Of a stretch of 59,445 nucleotides of DNA, positions 19,754-24,971 are shown one piece after another. How positions within the stretch are numbered: the first letter of the stretch is position 1; every line of letters starts with the position of its first letter. Location: positions 1 to 59,445 of the forward strand of contig JAUYKM010000005.1 of the NCBI GenBank assembly GCA_030699125.1. Direction: 5' to 3'. The stretch comes from Candidatus Daviesbacteria bacterium. Its GTDB lineage: Bacteria > Patescibacteriota > Microgenomatia > Daviesbacterales > UBA10151. Under the pieces are notes generated by a model. It made no database searches. It saw only the letters and a program-made list of their open reading frames with translations, and was not told the DNA's origin. The position numbers were made by a program, and so were the translations under genes.

Positions 19754-20980
19754 ATGTATTACAATAATAAATTTAGAAGAAACCGCCCTTCTATAAGAAA
19801 CAACGAATCAAATAGAAGATTTTCCAGACCAGTAAATGGCAATAGATCTCCACATGGAGGCCAGAGAAGAAGTCAGCTTGAAGGAGCTGATATTAACATA
19901 TTTATCAAAAAAGCTAATCCAGTTGTCCTTACGGAAAGTATTGCCAATATCCGTTTTGAAGATTTTAATATTTCCGAAATTTTAAAGCAAAATATCTTAA
20001 AACACGGATACAGTAAACCTACTCAAGTACAATCTCAAGCCATAAAACCAATTCTGGAAGGGCGTGATGTCATTGGTTTGGCTTCCACCGGAACTGGTAA
20101 AACAGCAGCCTTTTTGATTCCCTTAATTGATAAAATATTTAAAGATAGAAGCCAAAAGGTTTTGATAATTGCTCCAACCAGGGAGTTGGCTATTCAGATT
20201 AATGAAGAGCTAAGATCTTTTAGCTACGGTATGGGTATTTATTCAGCTTTAGTAATTGGGGGCGCAAATATGAATAGACAAGTGCAGGATATAAGAAGAG
20301 GCTCAAATATTGTTATCTCCACACCGGGCAGGTTAAAAGATTTAATTAAAAGAAGAGAAATTAATCTTTTAAACTTTTCTAATATTGTTTTAGATGAGGT
20401 GGATTTGATGGTAGATATTGGTTTTATTGCTGATGTTAAATACTTTATTTCACAAATGCCAAAAATACGCCAATCTTTGTTTTTTTCAGCCACCATTCCT
20501 CCAAAAGTACAGAGTATTTTACAATCATTTGTCACAAACCCCGTGACTATATCTGTTAAATTTCAAGAAACCTCAGAAAATGTAGATCAGGATGTAATAA
20601 AGATATTAAGCTCTGAAAAAAAGGTAGATCAACTGCATGATTTATTAGTCAAGGATGGTTTTGACAAAGTCTTAATTTTTGGCAGGACTAAACATGGAAT
20701 TGAAAAGCTAAACAAAGAGCTTGAGTTCAGAGGATTTAAGACAGGCGCATTGCATGGCAATAAAAATCAAGGCCAAAGAAGAAGGGTTTTGGAGAGTTTT
20801 AAACAAAATCAGATTCAAATACTTTTGGCAACAGATGTGGCCTCTCGTGGATTGGATATAGATAATGTCACTCACGTTATAAACTATGATTTACCCCAAA
20901 CTTATGAGGATTATATTCACAGAATCGGTAGAACAGGCAGGGCCGGAAAAATGGGCACAGCATTAACCTTTGTAGGTTAA
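19754..20980 (+). CDS. DEAD-box RNA helicase (RhlE/CshA-like)
   Basis: Q motif, ASTGTGKT, PTRELA, TPGRL, DEVD, SAT, ARG-like ASRGLDI, YIHRIGRTGRAG. Confidence 0.95.
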   Translation: MYYNNKFRRNRPSIRNNESNRRFSRPVNGNRSPHGGQRRSQLEGADINIFIKKANPVVLTESIANIRFEDFNISEILKQNILKHGYSKPTQVQSQAIKPILEGRDVIGLASTGTGKTAAFLIPLIDKIFKDRSQKVLIIAPTRELAIQINEELRSFSYGMGIYSALVIGGANMNRQVQDIRRGSNIVISTPGRLKDLIKRREINLLNFSNIVLDEVDLMVDIGFIADVKYFISQMPKIRQSLFFSATIPPKVQSILQSFVTNPVTISVKFQETSENVDQDVIKILSSEKKVDQLHDLLVKDGFDKVLIFGRTKHGIEKLNKELEFRGFKTGALHGNKNQGQRRRVLESFKQNQIQILLATDVASRGLDIDNVTHVINYDLPQTYEDYIHRIGRTGRAGKMGTALTFVG

Positions 20981-20984
20981 AATG

Positions 20985-21923
20985 CTAGGCAAGAGCTTTA
21001 ATCAGGACTTGCAGGCTGTCCCAGTTATGAATTGAGACTGGAAGTACTTTCTTTTTTGTTTTAGCTAAACTTTTTAGCTTTTTTTCTAGATCCTTCTTTT
21101 CAACTAAATCTGATTTGGTTAATAAAATAATCTCCTCCTTTTCCAAAAGCTTGGGATTAAATTTTTTAAGCTCATCCCGAATGACTTTGTAGTCACCCAG
21201 AGGATTATCTGACTGCGATGAAACACAATGAAGTAAGAGTTTCACCTTTTCTATATGTTTTAGGAATTTATGGCCCAAACCCCTACCTTCTGAGGCACCA
21301 TCTATTAAGCCCGGTATATCTGCTATAACTATTCCATTAAGCATACCCAGATTGGGTTCTAAAGTGGTAAAGGGGTAATCCCCAATTTTTGCTTGCGCAT
21401 TAGTAAGCTCATTTAAAATAGAGCTTTTACCGGCATTAGGCAGTCCAATTAAGCCAAAACTAGCAATTAGTTTTAGTTTTAATATTAATTTTCTCTCTAC
21501 CCCGGGAAGTCCGCTTTGGGCAAACCTGGAAGTAGTATTTGAAGAAGATTTAAAAAAAGCATTTCCTCTGCCGCCCAGTCCACCTTTTGCCAGTAATACT
21601 TTTTTATTTAGTTCATTTAGCTCTATTTCCTGACCTTCTTGATCGTAGATAGTTGTACCCATGGGCATTATTAAAGTAAGATCTTCTCCGTCAGCTCCTG
21701 TTTTTCTATTACCTCCGCCCAGCTGGCCATCCCAGGCTTTACATTCAGGTTGCGATAAAAATTTGTTTAATGCATAAAGATCAGATGTGGTTTGCACATA
21801 AACATCGCCACCCCTACCTCCATCTCCTCCACTTGGGCCGGCGCCCATTTTAGAATAAAAGGCCACTCTGCCTTTCCCGCCATGGCCACCTTTTACAATA
21901 ATTTCAACCTCATCAACTAACAT
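20985..21923 (-). CDS. obgE: GTPase ObgE/CgtA (short form)
   Basis: GGDGGRGGDV, GLPNAGKSS, YPFTTLEPNLG, ADIPGLI, GLGHKFLKHIE. Confidence 0.95.
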   Translation of the reverse strand: MLVDEVEIIVKGGHGGKGRVAFYSKMGAGPSGGDGGRGGDVYVQTTSDLYALNKFLSQPECKAWDGQLGGGNRKTGADGEDLTLIMPMGTTIYDQEGQEIELNELNKKVLLAKGGLGGRGNAFFKSSSNTTSRFAQSGLPGVERKLILKLKLIASFGLIGLPNAGKSSILNELTNAQAKIGDYPFTTLEPNLGMLNGIVIADIPGLIDGASEGRGLGHKFLKHIEKVKLLLHCVSSQSDNPLGDYKVIRDELKKFNPKLLEKEEIILLTKSDLVEKKDLEKKLKSLAKTKKKVLPVSIHNWDSLQVLIKALA

Positions 21924-21948
21924 AAGTCAGTGTATAGTAGCATAACTT

Positions 21949-22401
21949 ATGTGGTATACTGTATCCGTGCAAAATTCTTTCTATGCCAGCGGATTTCTTT
22001 ACAGTTTAAAAAAACATCGGATTCTCTTACTGCAATCTCCACAGAAAAATAATTTAGTTTCCTCCTGGTCTATGATGGGAGGAGAAGGAAAAGACGGAGA
22101 GGAAGCAGAGGTGACTTTCCAACGCATAATATCTAAACTATTAAATTTAGATTTAAAAAAGAAACATATTTATCCTGTCTATGACTACTTCCATAATACA
22201 AGAAATAAAATTAATCATGTGTTCTATGCTGAAGTTGGGAATACTAAAACCTTTAATTCTTCAAAAAAAGGCATATTTTCCTGGGTTAGCTTCCGTGAAA
22301 CCTTAAAGCTTCCCTTTACCAGCCAGACTAAACAGGATATTGTGGTAGGTGAGAGGGTTATTAATGCCAAATGGCGTGATGATGAAGCCAAAAAAGCTTA
22401 A
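21949..22401 (+). CDS. Degenerate NUDIX-fold protein
   Basis: WSMMGGEGKDGEEAEVTFQR resembles a Nudix box lacking the catalytic EE. Confidence 0.55.
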   Translation: MWYTVSVQNSFYASGFLYSLKKHRILLLQSPQKNNLVSSWSMMGGEGKDGEEAEVTFQRIISKLLNLDLKKKHIYPVYDYFHNTRNKINHVFYAEVGNTKTFNSSKKGIFSWVSFRETLKLPFTSQTKQDIVVGERVINAKWRDDEAKKA

Positions 22402-22431
22402 CCTGTTCAATTATTCTTCTATATTTACCAT

Positions 22432-22661
22432 CTAAATATTGGTTAGAAAAGTTACAGATTCTCTAAATTCTCCTAAAAGAACTTTTGCTACACCTCTTCT
22501 TTGGTACTCATAATCGACAGAAAGAAGACCAATTTGCACTGGTTGATTCTCATGAAAGGGAAGAAGATAATCAATCCTTCCTATGGATCGTATTCCATAA
22601 TAGGCTCTTATTATAGTCTTCGTTTTTTGTAGGGAGTGTGTATTAATTCTATTCTTTCCAC
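22432..22661 (-). pseudogene. GNAT acetyltransferase remnant (frameshifted, truncated)
   Basis: GTG-start frame MERIELIHTPYKKRRL* ends at an A6 run; the -1 frame continues ...IGLLSVDYEYQRRGVAKVLL (GNAT motif A) to TAG. Confidence 0.55.
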
Positions 22662-22709
22662 AAAGCTAGTTTAGCAAAAATAGAGTAAGATATCAAACTA
22701 TAGGTTCTG

Positions 22710-22718
22710 GGGTGGCTG
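22710..22718 (+). repeat. att-like direct repeat of the tRNA-His 3' end
   Basis: gggtggctg identical to 24898-24906. Confidence 0.35.
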
Positions 22719-22851
22719 GTCAGATTTAGTTCGTACCCAACTACAAGAATTTAAACCTTTGACTACTATTCCGGGTTACTCATCTGAGCACGACACTGGC
22801 CTGCACTGAGCCTGCCGAAGTGTTGATTTTGGGAACTTTTTACAGGAAGAA

Positions 22852-23853
22852 TTATATGTTTCCTCGTCTATATGCTTCCTGAATAAGCGCAAGTTCTTTT
22901 GTACTTATTAAAGATTTTCCTTGAGCAAGATGTCTCGCGAAATCTCTATAAACACCTCTATATTCTGAGCTTAGCGAAGAATTCAAGCTCTGCCATGTAC
23001 CAGACGGTACATGACTCTGCTTAATACGAAGTATCAAGCTCTGCTTATATTCTGACTGCTGATCAACTATTTCTCGCGAGCCATCTTCAGTCATTTGTAC
23101 TTCTCCGTTTTTGCTGAAAATATTCTTCACAATATCAACTACATATGTGTCTCCGTCTGCTGTAAATGTAACTTGTCGCACTTCAGGTCCTTTATTCATC
23201 CAGTCCATAGAAAGAGTACCAGAACCTTTGCCATACGAAAATCTAACATGTGCTTCCGTCTCAACTTTAAAACCCTCAGCTTTTTTGAATTTTGCATCTT
23301 TTACTGAGAAAGAAGTCCAATCAGGGAGAACATACGTTACAACTGAAAGTGCATTAATACCGCTATCGATAAGTACCCCACCTCCTGCAATTTCAGGATT
23401 AAAAATCCATCCAGGAGTAGCATGATAATTTGGAGCATATTCGCTATATTGAATATCAATCCCTTCAATATTTTTATCTACGAGTTCTTCTTTTGCTGCT
23501 TCAACAGCTGGATTATACCGTGCATGAAATGACATAAAAAGTACTCTTTCCTGCTGATTTGCAAAAACACTCATTTCTTCACATTGAGCTACAGTTAAAG
23601 CAGGAGGCTTTTCAACCAATACATGTTTTCCCCCGCGAAGAGCATCCATAACGAGCTGGTGATGAGTATTTGGAGGAGTATTGATGCTTACTGCTTGAAT
23701 GTTTGGATTCGTAAGTACTTCCCTAACAGATTGAGTACTAAGATCTGCGATAGCTTTGACTTGAAAGTCTTTTTGTCCAGATTTTGTTAATGCGTCATAA
23801 TGAATCTTACCTATATTACCAAAACCTATTAGTCCTAAAGAGTAGGAGGGCAT
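22852..23853 (-). CDS. Gfo/Idh/MocA-family oxidoreductase containing a 29-aa insertion
   Basis: GLIGFGNIG, TPPNTH, GKHVLVEKP, GGGVLIDSGIN. Confidence 0.9.
   Translation of the reverse strand: MPSYSLGLIGFGNIGKIHYDALTKSGQKDFQVKAIADLSTQSVREVLTNPNIQAVSINTPPNTHHQLVMDALRGGKHVLVEKPPALTVAQCEEMSVFANQQERVLFMSFHARYNPAVEAAKEELVDKNIEGIDIQYSEYAPNYHATPGWIFNPEIAGGGVLIDSGINALSVVTYVLPDWTSFSVKDAKFKKAEGFKVETEAHVRFSYGKGSGTLSMDWMNKGPEVRQVTFTADGDTYVVDIVKNIFSKNGEVQMTEDGSREIVDQQSEYKQSLILRIKQSHVPSGTWQSLNSSLSSEYRGVYRDFARHLAQGKSLISTKELALIQEAYRRGNI
22969..23055. repeat. 87-bp in-frame palindromic insertion flanked by a 10-bp direct repeat
   Basis: tatattctga at 22959 and 23046 (87 bp apart); internal catgtacc-agac-ggtacatg hairpin; tcaagctctgc occurs twice. 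Confidence 0.75.
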
Positions 23854-24674
23854 AAATTCGACTCCAATATACTCAGGATTTTTCCATCAACAGCTTCGTT
23901 GAATTTGCGGGCAAAAAAGCCTTGACTTGCCAGCAAGAATTCGGCGTCTTTGAATGTGAAGTTCCTTGGACGTAACTTTATTGTTCCTATTGGCACCCAG
24001 TCAATGGTTCTTTTATCGTCGTTTATGATAGTTCCCTTGTAGCTAGTATTCATTATTACCGTCTGAAAGAATCCTTCATCAGGGATGAAGGTGTGCCGAT
24101 AGAATCTCTTGAACCTCTCGACCTCAGGCTTGTAACTAACAAATTCACAGAACTTCCTACTCAAGATCATCCACTGATTTCCGATATAGGGAGTCACACC
24201 GGCAAGATACGGTCGTTTGATAGGAATGCGTAGTATCCTGTTACCAAACTCTATAGTATAGTTCTGTATTCGAGATAGTGTATCAGAACGGAACTTGCTC
24301 TGGTTAACCACCTTGATGAAATTTTTTCCTATATTGCGATTAAGAAAATCTTGGATGTGCGCCTGCGACTTTAGGGGGAAATCTTGTGCACTAAGGTTTA
24401 TGAAGAATTCCCATTTCAAACCCATCTTCAATAATTCCTTAATGCCCCGCAACTCAGCATCTATCAGACTGTATCCCCCCCAAAGAGTGTTTTCACTCTT
24501 CAATAAAGATGCGTTGGGAAAACCTGACAAAAAATTTTGTATCTCCGTCTGCAATCCAATGCCTGATCTCTTATCCACATGAACCAAATAATAGTTGGCG
24601 GAATGGTAAAGTGCCCTAAAGAGTCTTTTGAACTGGTTAGGGTACCGATGTACCAAGATGAGATATGCGATCAT
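23835..24674 (-). CDS. GT14 core-2/I-branching beta-1,6-GlcNAc transferase / xylosyltransferase-like protein
   Basis: AYLILVH, VHVDKRS, WGGYSL, FINLSAQDFPL, GNQWMILSR, IPDEGFFQT, FARKF. Confidence 0.9.
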   Translation of the reverse strand: MIAYLILVHRYPNQFKRLFRALYHSANYYLVHVDKRSGIGLQTEIQNFLSGFPNASLLKSENTLWGGYSLIDAELRGIKELLKMGLKWEFFINLSAQDFPLKSQAHIQDFLNRNIGKNFIKVVNQSKFRSDTLSRIQNYTIEFGNRILRIPIKRPYLAGVTPYIGNQWMILSRKFCEFVSYKPEVERFKRFYRHTFIPDEGFFQTVIMNTSYKGTIINDDKRTIDWVPIGTIKLRPRNFTFKDAEFLLASQGFFARKFNEAVDGKILSILESNLCPPTL

Positions 24675-24898
24675 AAAAGTATTAGAAAACAATTGGGTAG
24701 TTGAACTCTAAGAGTTAAACTGTCAAAAATAAATGAAGTGTAATTTCTTGCAGTCGAAATAACGTAATCATTAAGTTTTCTAAATGTTGATTATATACTA
24801 CTTACCTTAAATTAGAAACAAGCTGGATAGTAAATGCCAGTTTGATGAGTTCAAACCTCCCATCAGGGGTAGTAAAAGTTGAGGCTAAAAGGTACTAG

Positions 24899-24971
24899 GG
24901 TGGCTGACGGGAATTGAACCCGCAACATTCAGATCCACAATCTGACGCTCTGCCATTGAGCTACAGCCACC
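24899..24971 (-). tRNA. tRNA-His(GUG)
   Basis: G-1, GTGGCTG/CAGCCAC, anticodon arm TCAGA-TT-GTG-GA-TCTGA, T-loop TTCAATT, C discriminator. Confidence 0.95.

Follow-up and report, generated by a model that had tools for sequence, protein, structure and literature searches.

Two kinds of small palindromic repeat form the background to the present report, which concerns an 87-nt in-frame insertion in an oxidoreductase gene of Candidatus Daviesbacteria bacterium (contig JAUYKM010000005.1, assembly GCA_030699125.1; the whole stretch of 59,445 nucleotides that was analysed is called the window below). Repetitive extragenic palindromic (REP) elements tagged with GTAG or CGTC may lie inside genes or in clusters, and some families, those of the CGTC type, lack a transposase of their own; the ends of GTAG REPs can provide the TAG stop codon of a flanking open reading frame, ORF (Di Nocera et al. 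2013, PMC3733652). Rickettsia palindromic elements (RPEs; Ogata et al. 2000, reviewed in PMC10969869) stand in frame in unrelated housekeeping genes of a reduced genome, and their peptides are thought to be compatible with the protein fold (PMC10969869). We believe that the 87 nt are, very probably, three members of two tiny hairpin-repeat families that accumulated in frame in a loop of the oxidoreductase.

Two further kinds of element serve for comparison. Insertion sequences (IS) of the IS200/IS605 type have hairpin ends and insert in a fixed orientation; the insertion point lies 3' of a specific short sequence, and no true duplication of the target arises. Two of them, IS608 and ISDra2, reportedly transpose as single strands, with guide-directed cleavage and target choice. 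The small dispersed repeats (SDR) of cyanobacteria are said to be ~21-27 nt long, to have hairpin potential and to be apparently mobile with no known transposase; reportedly their insertion sites include other such repeats as well as conserved genes or RNAs.

The insertion (29 codons) lies at 22969-23055 on the minus strand, inside a gene of 333 aa at 22852-23853 (minus strand), and is absent from the empty alleles P0006-P0009 and from all distant homologues. The sequence-only reading, a note made earlier from the letters of the window, had observed that tatattctga occurs twice in the gene, exactly 29 codons apart; we find TATATTCTGA at 22959-22968 and at 23046-23055, the starts being 87 nt apart. 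In the sense of the gene, which is the minus strand, both the gene-downstream copy (22959-22968) and the gene-upstream one (23046-23055) read TCAGAATATA, and owing to this flanking repeat the register of the insertion is ambiguous by 10 nt. The repeat alone proves little, because pairs of 10-mers within 100 nt are common in this AT-rich window (42, versus 3-19 in shuffles), and it is the comparative evidence that decides. We take the repeat to be real since the orthologue alignment breaks exactly there and the inserted units recur elsewhere.

On the sense strand the order is TCAGAATATA, A, unit a (GCAGAGCTTGATACTTCGTATTAA), unit b (GCAGAGTCATGTACCGTCTGGTACATG), unit c (GCAGAGCTTGAATTCTTCGCTAAGC), TCAGAATATA and G; every unit is a whole number of codons and has a hairpin. 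Units a and c share a head, TAAGCARAGCTTG, which is followed by a variable hairpin. In unit a (24 nt; 23021-23045 with the A before it, minus strand) this hairpin is ATAC/GTAT with a TTC loop. Unit c (25 nt, 22969-22993, minus strand), delimited by the alignment of alleles and by the census of the c-type pattern given below, makes a 36-nt c-type element together with one A and the 10-nt repeat; the gene-downstream copy of that repeat is at once the 3' arm of unit c's stem and the coding sequence for the conserved S-E-Y of the SEYRGVY motif. Unit b (27 nt, 22994-23020, minus strand) is a perfect 8-bp hairpin with a GTCT loop. It follows GCAGAG, the first six bases of unit c's head, and GCAGAG is present on both its sides. 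The perfect hairpin catgtacc/ggtacatg (arms 22994-23001 and 23006-23013, 4-nt loop), the duplicated tcaagctctgc (22983-22993 and 23034-23044) and the REP-like ttctgagcttagcgaagaa (22963-22981) had all been pointed out in the sequence-only reading, and all are present there.

The sense strand folds better than its shuffles (z = -3.2 as RNA, -3.4 as DNA); in the predicted fold the left repeat and the head (AGAATATAAGC) pair with GCTTGAATTCT and enclose hairpins a and b. Rfam gave no RNA family at E <= 1 over 22300-23200. The full 97-nt stretch is single-copy in the window's own genome, and the family becomes visible only when searched unit by unit.

A protein search returned 536 homologues, 29 of which were aligned; the DNA alignment comprised the window's allele, eight close metagenomic alleles and the closest species-level genome, G006. 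All homologues at 46-67 % identity lack the insert and read ...VDQxSEYRGVY..., and the four close relatives P0006-P0009 are empty as well (...VDQESEYRGVY...; in P0006 and P0009 the site is GAT CAA GAA TCAGAATAT AGA GG), i.e., the 29 aa are not carried by all homologues. Removal of one repeat unit from the window's allele had been expected to leave ...DQQSEYRGVYRDF, and this matches the empty alleles of the relatives (...DQESEYRGVYRDF).

The filled alleles make up a series. P0002 has 36 additional nucleotides (unit c), P0004 and G006 have 60 (a'+c), and the window's allele has 87 (a+b+c). P0010 carries b'+c, with b' at the same place as unit b, and has a 51-nt upstream deletion; P0003, P0005 and P0011 carry c with three different upstream in-frame deletions. 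Some of the close alleles thus have 12 or 20 extra residues. Unit c is the sole unit common to all insert-bearing alleles. The variant a' of P0004 and G006 has one compensatory stem change relative to a, and the differences between a and a' and between b and b' are in part compensatory stem changes. The native loop codons (...MTEDGSREIVDQQ; 23056-23096, minus strand) are those lost by in-frame deletion in P0003, P0005, P0010 and P0011. In assembled Logan contigs the window's allele was found in a source-like run and a P0003-type junction, which skips 22995-23096, on a contig of run X3, from a further sample of the same groundwater study, and this excludes an assembly artefact. In the tree of alleles the empty and filled ones are intermixed, with weak support, which could also be explained by recombination. 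The sequence-only reading had further suggested that the insert might leave precisely; by the arrangement of the 10-nt repeats, such an excision is plausible.

The product of the host gene was assigned from its ORF, Pfam and PDB relatives as a Gfo/Idh/MocA oxidoreductase: PF01408 (70.9 bits, E 1.9e-19) and PF22725 (30.5 bits) both exceed the cut-offs, and the architecture is an N-terminal NAD-binding Rossmann domain followed by a C-terminal alpha/beta domain. The nearest solved structures are 4EW6 (D-galactose 1-dehydrogenase) and 6JNJ (L-arabinose 1-dehydrogenase), and the protein resembles either of these enzymes. The AlphaFold2 model is confident overall (pTM 0.84), with pLDDT below 50 at residues 258-290. 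In this model the insert, residues 270-298 (KQSLILRIKQSHVPSGTWQSLNSSLSSEY), sits between the last beta strand and the C-terminal helix, in a loop that we take to be flexible and exposed at the surface, and the native loop missing from the deletion alleles adjoins it on the upstream side. The earlier view of a composite REP insertion tolerated in protein agrees well with these data: there are three units, the ORF is intact in all ten alleles examined (the window's, the eight metagenomic ones and that of G006), and the predicted position in a low-confidence loop supports tolerance.

The related repeats whose existence elsewhere had been in question were found both in the same genome and in relatives. 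The window's genome (G000, 1.13 Mb) contains eight exact copies of the head 13-mer TAAGCARAGCTTG and several more with one mismatch, each followed by a short hairpin and then by TAA(A). Within the same GTDB family there are 740 head 13-mers in 89 of the 96 genomes (58 of 63 genera), versus one match for the reversed control; close relatives have from 0 to 48 copies, the maximum being in G068, and tandem heads spaced at 24-36 nt occur. Across the class the head is patchy (69 of 201 genomes). These copies define the family of units a and c as the head TAAGC-NN-AGCTTG, a variable covarying hairpin and a terminal TAA or TAR. The head itself is a 4-bp mini-hairpin, AAGC/GCTT, and the base of the variable hairpin is TTG/TAA. 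A loose structural scan (GCTTG, hairpin, TAA) gave 68 matches versus 47-68 in shuffles, i.e., no excess, so that the 13-nt head is needed to define members.

The dispersed copies decide one question raised at the outset. The sequence-only reading had left a choice between a duplicated target site and slippage, and a purely local origin, in which slippage or a tandem duplication copied the gene's own sequence and the copy then diverged, with no relation to any dispersed repeat, would be suggested by the flanking 10-nt direct repeat and by the internal 11-nt duplication. The inserted sequence is, however, unlike the flanking gene sequence, and near-identical copies of each unit stand in other genes, spacers and genera. 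The dispersed copies thus exclude purely local slippage, and we regard it as extremely improbable; insertion is the part of that claim which holds.

The position of the copies differs between related genomes. In G000 one is intergenic, before a P-type ATPase gene, and in-frame sense copies are found in TsaD (DKQSLRSDLKR), dihydroorotase (KQSLSLRDK) and an MBL-fold hydrolase (KPSLPSGDG); a membrane protein has an in-frame sense c-type copy, KQSLKFSLRSNY, and RNase HII an in-frame antisense one. Relative to G006 (~70 % DNA identity overall) the dihydroorotase and TsaD copies add eight residues each, and the MBL-fold hydrolase has an exact 27-nt insert, CATTATAA|GCC...GGTAA|AATA: the empty site in G006 is CAT TAC AAA ATT, and G000 has CAT TAT AA|GCC...GGT AA|A ATA. 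The copies of G006 itself are at other, mostly intergenic places, the positions not being conserved relative to G000. The 24-nt unit a recurs without any change in G005, which is of a different genus; it stands there as a tandem pair, and paralogous loci of G005 carry c alone and a+a+c. These loci appear to repeat the pattern “c first, a added 5' of it”. The genomes compared show a turnover of copies with a conserved head, covarying stems and motif-specific flanks.

Two of these genes have further peculiarities. The TsaD gene (G000:C5, 48189-49292, minus strand) contains a second insertion, of 24 aa relative to G006, ~360 nt downstream of the KQSL unit; it consists of heptamer repeats (CAGCTAT three times, then GACGAC-type units), reads SQSSAISYQLSDRRQKKSDDRRLTPDD and belongs to a different class of repeat. 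An ORF for a 300-aa membrane protein (MYFDYAQYKQSLKFSLRSNYKQRG...) begins with ~20 codons of repeat-derived sequence (G000:C1:78996-79084, minus strand): a TTCGACTACGCTCAGTA motif, also present in G045, comes first and a c-type unit next; the annotated start of this ORF may be wrong or made by the repeats.

In the sense direction the head has a single stop-free frame (TAT AAG CAG AGC TTG), which reads (Y/D)-K-Q-S-L, the other two meeting TAA or TGA; hence the recurrent KQSL peptide. Within genes, the copies seen are only those that add whole codons and avoid stops. Of 99 independent head loci about a quarter are in long open frames (16 sense, 8 antisense), and the intergenic share is about three quarters. 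The upstream gene uses the head's TAA as its stop codon in at least seven loci, and in ribosomal-protein operons many copies are placed exactly between the stop codon of one gene and the start codon of the next.

Such a distribution invites another explanation, namely that the hairpin modules are kept for a function at the RNA level or as DNA-binding sites (e.g., as signals between cistrons for processing or stability, or as sites where a conserved host protein would bind), the insert of the oxidoreductase then being selected, variable and not selfish DNA. The copies between stop and start codons would fit, and so would the strong conservation of the head while stems covary and the head loop varies, the conserved G.T wobble at the stem base (TTG/TAA), which allows pairing on the sense strand only, and the twofold sense bias in ORFs, though one sense and three antisense frames are free of stops. 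Yet the copy number varies from 0 to 48 among close relatives, positions differ between G000 and G006, the proteins that contain copies are unrelated and both orientations occur, related populations have empty, shorter and deleted alleles of the host gene side by side, and no Rfam family matches. On this balance we consider a selected function quite unlikely.

The search for the internal hairpin, proposed in the sequence-only reading, located b-type hairpins in contig C4 of G000, and the 14-mer GTACCGTCTGGTAC of unit b gave 33 matches in 24 of the 96 family genomes (control 0), located in ORFs, in spacers and in regions resembling RNA genes. Judged by these matches, unit b is a separate low-copy hairpin family. 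A pair of b-type hairpins (GTACC-GTCT-GGTAC with variable extensions) lies in a non-coding, terminator-ended stretch at G000:C4:2893-2983, and one of the C4 copies is identical over 22 nt to unit b' of P0010. Relatives have b-type hairpins in conserved regions resembling RNA genes (loci L152-L154, L147, L151 and L156), and some of these loci resemble a variable region of 23S rRNA. An assignment of unit b to the RAYT-linked “ASHxxSG” repeat was rejected; the copies of the latter are CTTCCCAC/GTGGGAAG hairpins of different sequence.

The flanks of the c-type copies proved informative. The pattern AGCTTGA-N4-6-TCGC-NNN-GCTC occurs in 34 of the 96 family genomes (control 0), and a flanking repeat of at least 5 nt accompanies 17 of 36 c-type copies versus 10 of 54 a-type units. 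This repeat matches the element's own 3' arm, and it covaries with the arm of the hairpin. The variant with the AATTCT arm has (C)AGAATATA(A) on its flanks at three independent loci. One is the oxidoreductase, another the ribosomal protein L1 gene of G029, where the c copy is in frame (GKTEY[KQSLNSSLRSEY]KTEAK), and the third a spacer in G078. Consensus c copies (arm AAATTY, 3' end RAATTATAA) are often found at AATTATAA. Since the AGAATATA motif recurs with the same arm variant, the 10-nt “target duplication” is not an arbitrary one; the three loci identify it as a specific motif complementary to the element's 5' arm, and c-type insertion looks sequence-directed. The earlier proposal of a duplicated target site thus stands as to insertion; an arbitrary duplication is contradicted by the recurrence of the motif in other genes. 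The length of the flanking repeat depends on the unit: 10 nt for c, 6 nt for b (GCAGAG), and 3 nt or 9-12 nt (the head) for a.

Two other origins were considered and rejected. The units are not a miniature inverted-repeat transposable element: no matching terminal inverted repeats were seen, although the parent IS was not searched for exhaustively, the flanking repeats vary (3, 6 and 10 nt), and the c-type repeat is one specific motif recurring between loci. Nor is the variable hairpin of a-type units copied from the flank of the target; the identity of the flank to the 3' end equals that of permuted controls, and the empty site of the MBL-fold hydrolase has nothing resembling the stem.

How does the family compare with the described systems? 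REPs are palindromes of 20-40 nt whose stems vary and contain G.T pairs and which bear a conserved, unpaired tag at one end (PMC3733652; Bertels & Rainey 2011, PMC3116915), and the likeness extends to their occurrence, single or clustered and mostly intergenic downstream of ORFs, with some intragenic copies adding residues. A short repeated palindrome is what we find here as well, with hairpin units of 24-36 nt and the eight exact heads of G000. The tag, however, is the 13-nt TAAGCARAGCTTG forming a mini-hairpin, instead of GTAG or CGTC; the CGTC that unit b does contain lies where stem and loop meet, and is no unpaired tag at the terminus as in REPs. The units are arranged in head-to-tail arrays of 24-36 nt and not mainly in head-to-head dimers, and c-type copies carry a sequence-specific flanking repeat. 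Unlike in REPtrons, none of the RAYT genes inspected is flanked by units of the family, and its copy number is independent of Y1 genes. The candidate phyla radiation (CPR) and Microgenomatia are not among the phyla reported for tagged REPs in the abstract of PMC3733652.

To RPEs the likeness is in the in-frame, presumably translated copies in the oxidoreductase, the MBL-fold hydrolase, dihydroorotase, TsaD, RNase HII (antisense) and L1 of G029, and the units may be seen as a smaller counterpart of the selfish DNA found within Rickettsia genes. RPEs measure ~100-150 bp versus 24, 27 and 36 nt here, i.e., our units are three to six times shorter and are set apart by size; moreover, here most copies are intergenic, units stack into composites and an allele series is visible. 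The SDR of cyanobacteria differ in sequence families and in lineage. The paper library searched gave no description of the present families in CPR or Patescibacteria. What we report is, as far as these comparisons go, a new family of the already known intragenic REP/RPE-like elements, which acts like REPs and RPEs without membership in either.

The allele series suggests the following course of events. A 36-nt c-type element would have entered at TCAGAATATA, so that the motif then stood on both its sides; a 24-nt a-type unit would have been added at the TAA|GCAGAG junction, and the 27-nt b hairpin after GCAGAG. Sister alleles would instead have lost the upstream loop by in-frame deletions. These upstream deletions end within the GCAGAG start of unit c (at 0, +2 and +6, in three independent events), and both b variants are at +6 of GCAGAG, between two GCAGAG copies, which hints that the head is a preferred break site.

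As to the mobilising mechanism, the units may be REP-like elements that are not autonomous and travel as single-stranded hairpins, moved by an enzyme acting in trans, either one of the HUH/Y1 (IS200/IS605-RAYT) type or some unknown nuclease; by analogy, we hold this to be possible, though short of probable. TAA or AGAATATA is found directly 5' of the element and again at its 3' end, and is complementary to GCTTG plus the 5' arm. It is tempting to propose a guide function for GCTTG and the 5' arm, which form the 5' foot of the hairpin: they would pair with the 3' end of the element itself or with an identical motif in the target, TAA for a-type units, AGAATATA or AATTATA for c-type units. Such sequence-directed insertion would mimic a target duplication, and each copy would bring a new target, giving tandem arrays; AGAATATAA would be a candidate target for the c-unit donor. 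In IS200/IS605 elements the cleavage and target sites are recognised through base pairing with a guide at the hairpin foot, and such a guide would explain why, in our units, TAA and AGAATATA serve both as target and as element end. Our units, in contrast, have one hairpin and not two different ends, encode nothing and have no linked transposase; the resemblance would be one of mechanism only, not of membership. The strongest form of the idea, with the a and c units as autonomous-looking, minimal mobile DNA of 24-36 nt, a single hairpin whose built-in guide sets both the 3' cleavage site and the target, appears to us unlikely.

The Y1 genes were inspected in this connection. They occur in 83 of the 96 family genomes, with up to 12 per genome. 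G000 has three RAYT-like Y1 transposase genes (217-233 aa; C8:41234-41563, C8:56369-56623 and C8:280039-280275), each of which stands between copies of a hairpin or long direct repeat of its own, namely GGGACGGTCC, ACACCCTTGGGGTGT (here with direct repeats of ~45 nt) and CACACCCGGTGTG. Together with 16 loci of G005, G006 and G045, which are flanked by other hairpins, they make up the 19 Y1/RAYT loci inspected. At three Y1 loci a head look-alike with one mismatch lies within 1.5 kb, which we judge coincidental. Heads are still carried by 11 of the 13 Y1-free genomes.

A number of observations weigh against the proposed mechanism, and we list them together. No head-type or b-type units bracket any of the 19 Y1/RAYT loci within 1.5 kb; in the family genomes the number of head copies is uncorrelated with the number of Y1 genes (Spearman 0.10, p = 0.32), and G068 carries its 48 head copies with no detectable Y1 gene. 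The hairpin sequence varies from copy to copy, whereas the hairpins at IS200/IS605 ends are sequence-specific. A flanking repeat of 5 nt or more is missing from about half of the c-type copies, and for a-type units the identity between the 5' flank and the element end is TAA only, no better than in permuted controls. The advantage of sense over antisense folding is small (22 versus 14 copies). The clustering of deletion end points is based on only the three events mentioned, microhomology is absent from the deletion junctions, and the set of surviving rearrangements could be biased by selection for the right-hand SEY motif.

Several of the same facts can be read in favour of an origin that needs no dedicated enzyme, which we consider the main rival: copy-choice, i.e., template switching during replication, or annealing of single-stranded fragments, between dispersed copies. 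TAA, the 9-13-nt head and the 10-nt AGAATATA motif would then be the switch points, the hairpins would stall the replication fork, and the “target duplication” would be the microhomology used. This would account for the flanking repeats whose length varies from unit to unit, for a units joining existing heads here and in the paralogous loci of G005, for c repeats that equal the element's own 3' end in several unrelated loci, and for the absence of a Y1 correlation, including the 48 copies in a Y1-free genome. Isolated a-type insertions, however, share just TAA with the target, which is scant homology for a distant donor; an identical 13-nt head across 58 genera, patchy in the class, argues for a conserved recognition factor; and the lack of microhomology at deletion junctions counts here too. 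Template switching seems to us rather doubtful. For the full explanation, which combines the accumulation of hairpin units with a mobilising mechanism, our confidence is a little above even.

Some observations concern the host gene and its surroundings. The gene has a second in-frame length polymorphism in its N-terminal part (23700-23760, alignment columns 61-75): ~10 residues (D..DSVxFYDDY) are missing from the window's allele and from six of ten other close alleles, and are kept in the remaining close alleles and in every distant homologue. The oxidoreductase gene and a gene for a GT14/“Branch” glycosyltransferase form a two-gene module at 22847-24683, which adjoins tRNA-His at 24898-24970. 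The module has 88-92 % DNA identity to G006, versus ~72 % for adjacent housekeeping genes (obg and others, 19955-22376) and ~70 % for most other genes. These identities suggest horizontal exchange of the module among Daviesbacteria genera, and such an exchange would also explain why the c insertion is common to several lineages. Just 3' of the stop codon of the host gene, a GC-richer intergenic stretch (22780-22830) contains CTGAGCCTGCCGAAG, which has 80 % identity to the loop region of unit c (CTGAGCTTAGCGAAG) and no Rfam match; it may be another degenerate repeat.

The value added by this locus lies in the allele series together with the flanking motif matched to the arm. It is an unusually clear natural series, with empty sites, one, two and three units and deletion derivatives, and it shows hairpin repeats building up in a protein loop, and eroding it, while the frame is kept. 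Length polymorphism of this kind in conserved genes can mislead the alignment of orthologues, the typing of strains and the prediction of structures when genomes are assembled from metagenomes. The arm-matched flanking motif offers a testable idea of how non-coding mini-repeats choose their site. If the guide proposal were true, a change of the arm would retarget the element (AATTCT with AGAATATA, AAATTC with AATTATA), and the units would be the smallest known sequence-programmable homing elements, active across Microgenomatia and continually remodelling loops of essential proteins. The genomes of CPR bacteria are tiny and gene-dense, so that dispersed repeats must live largely inside or beside genes.

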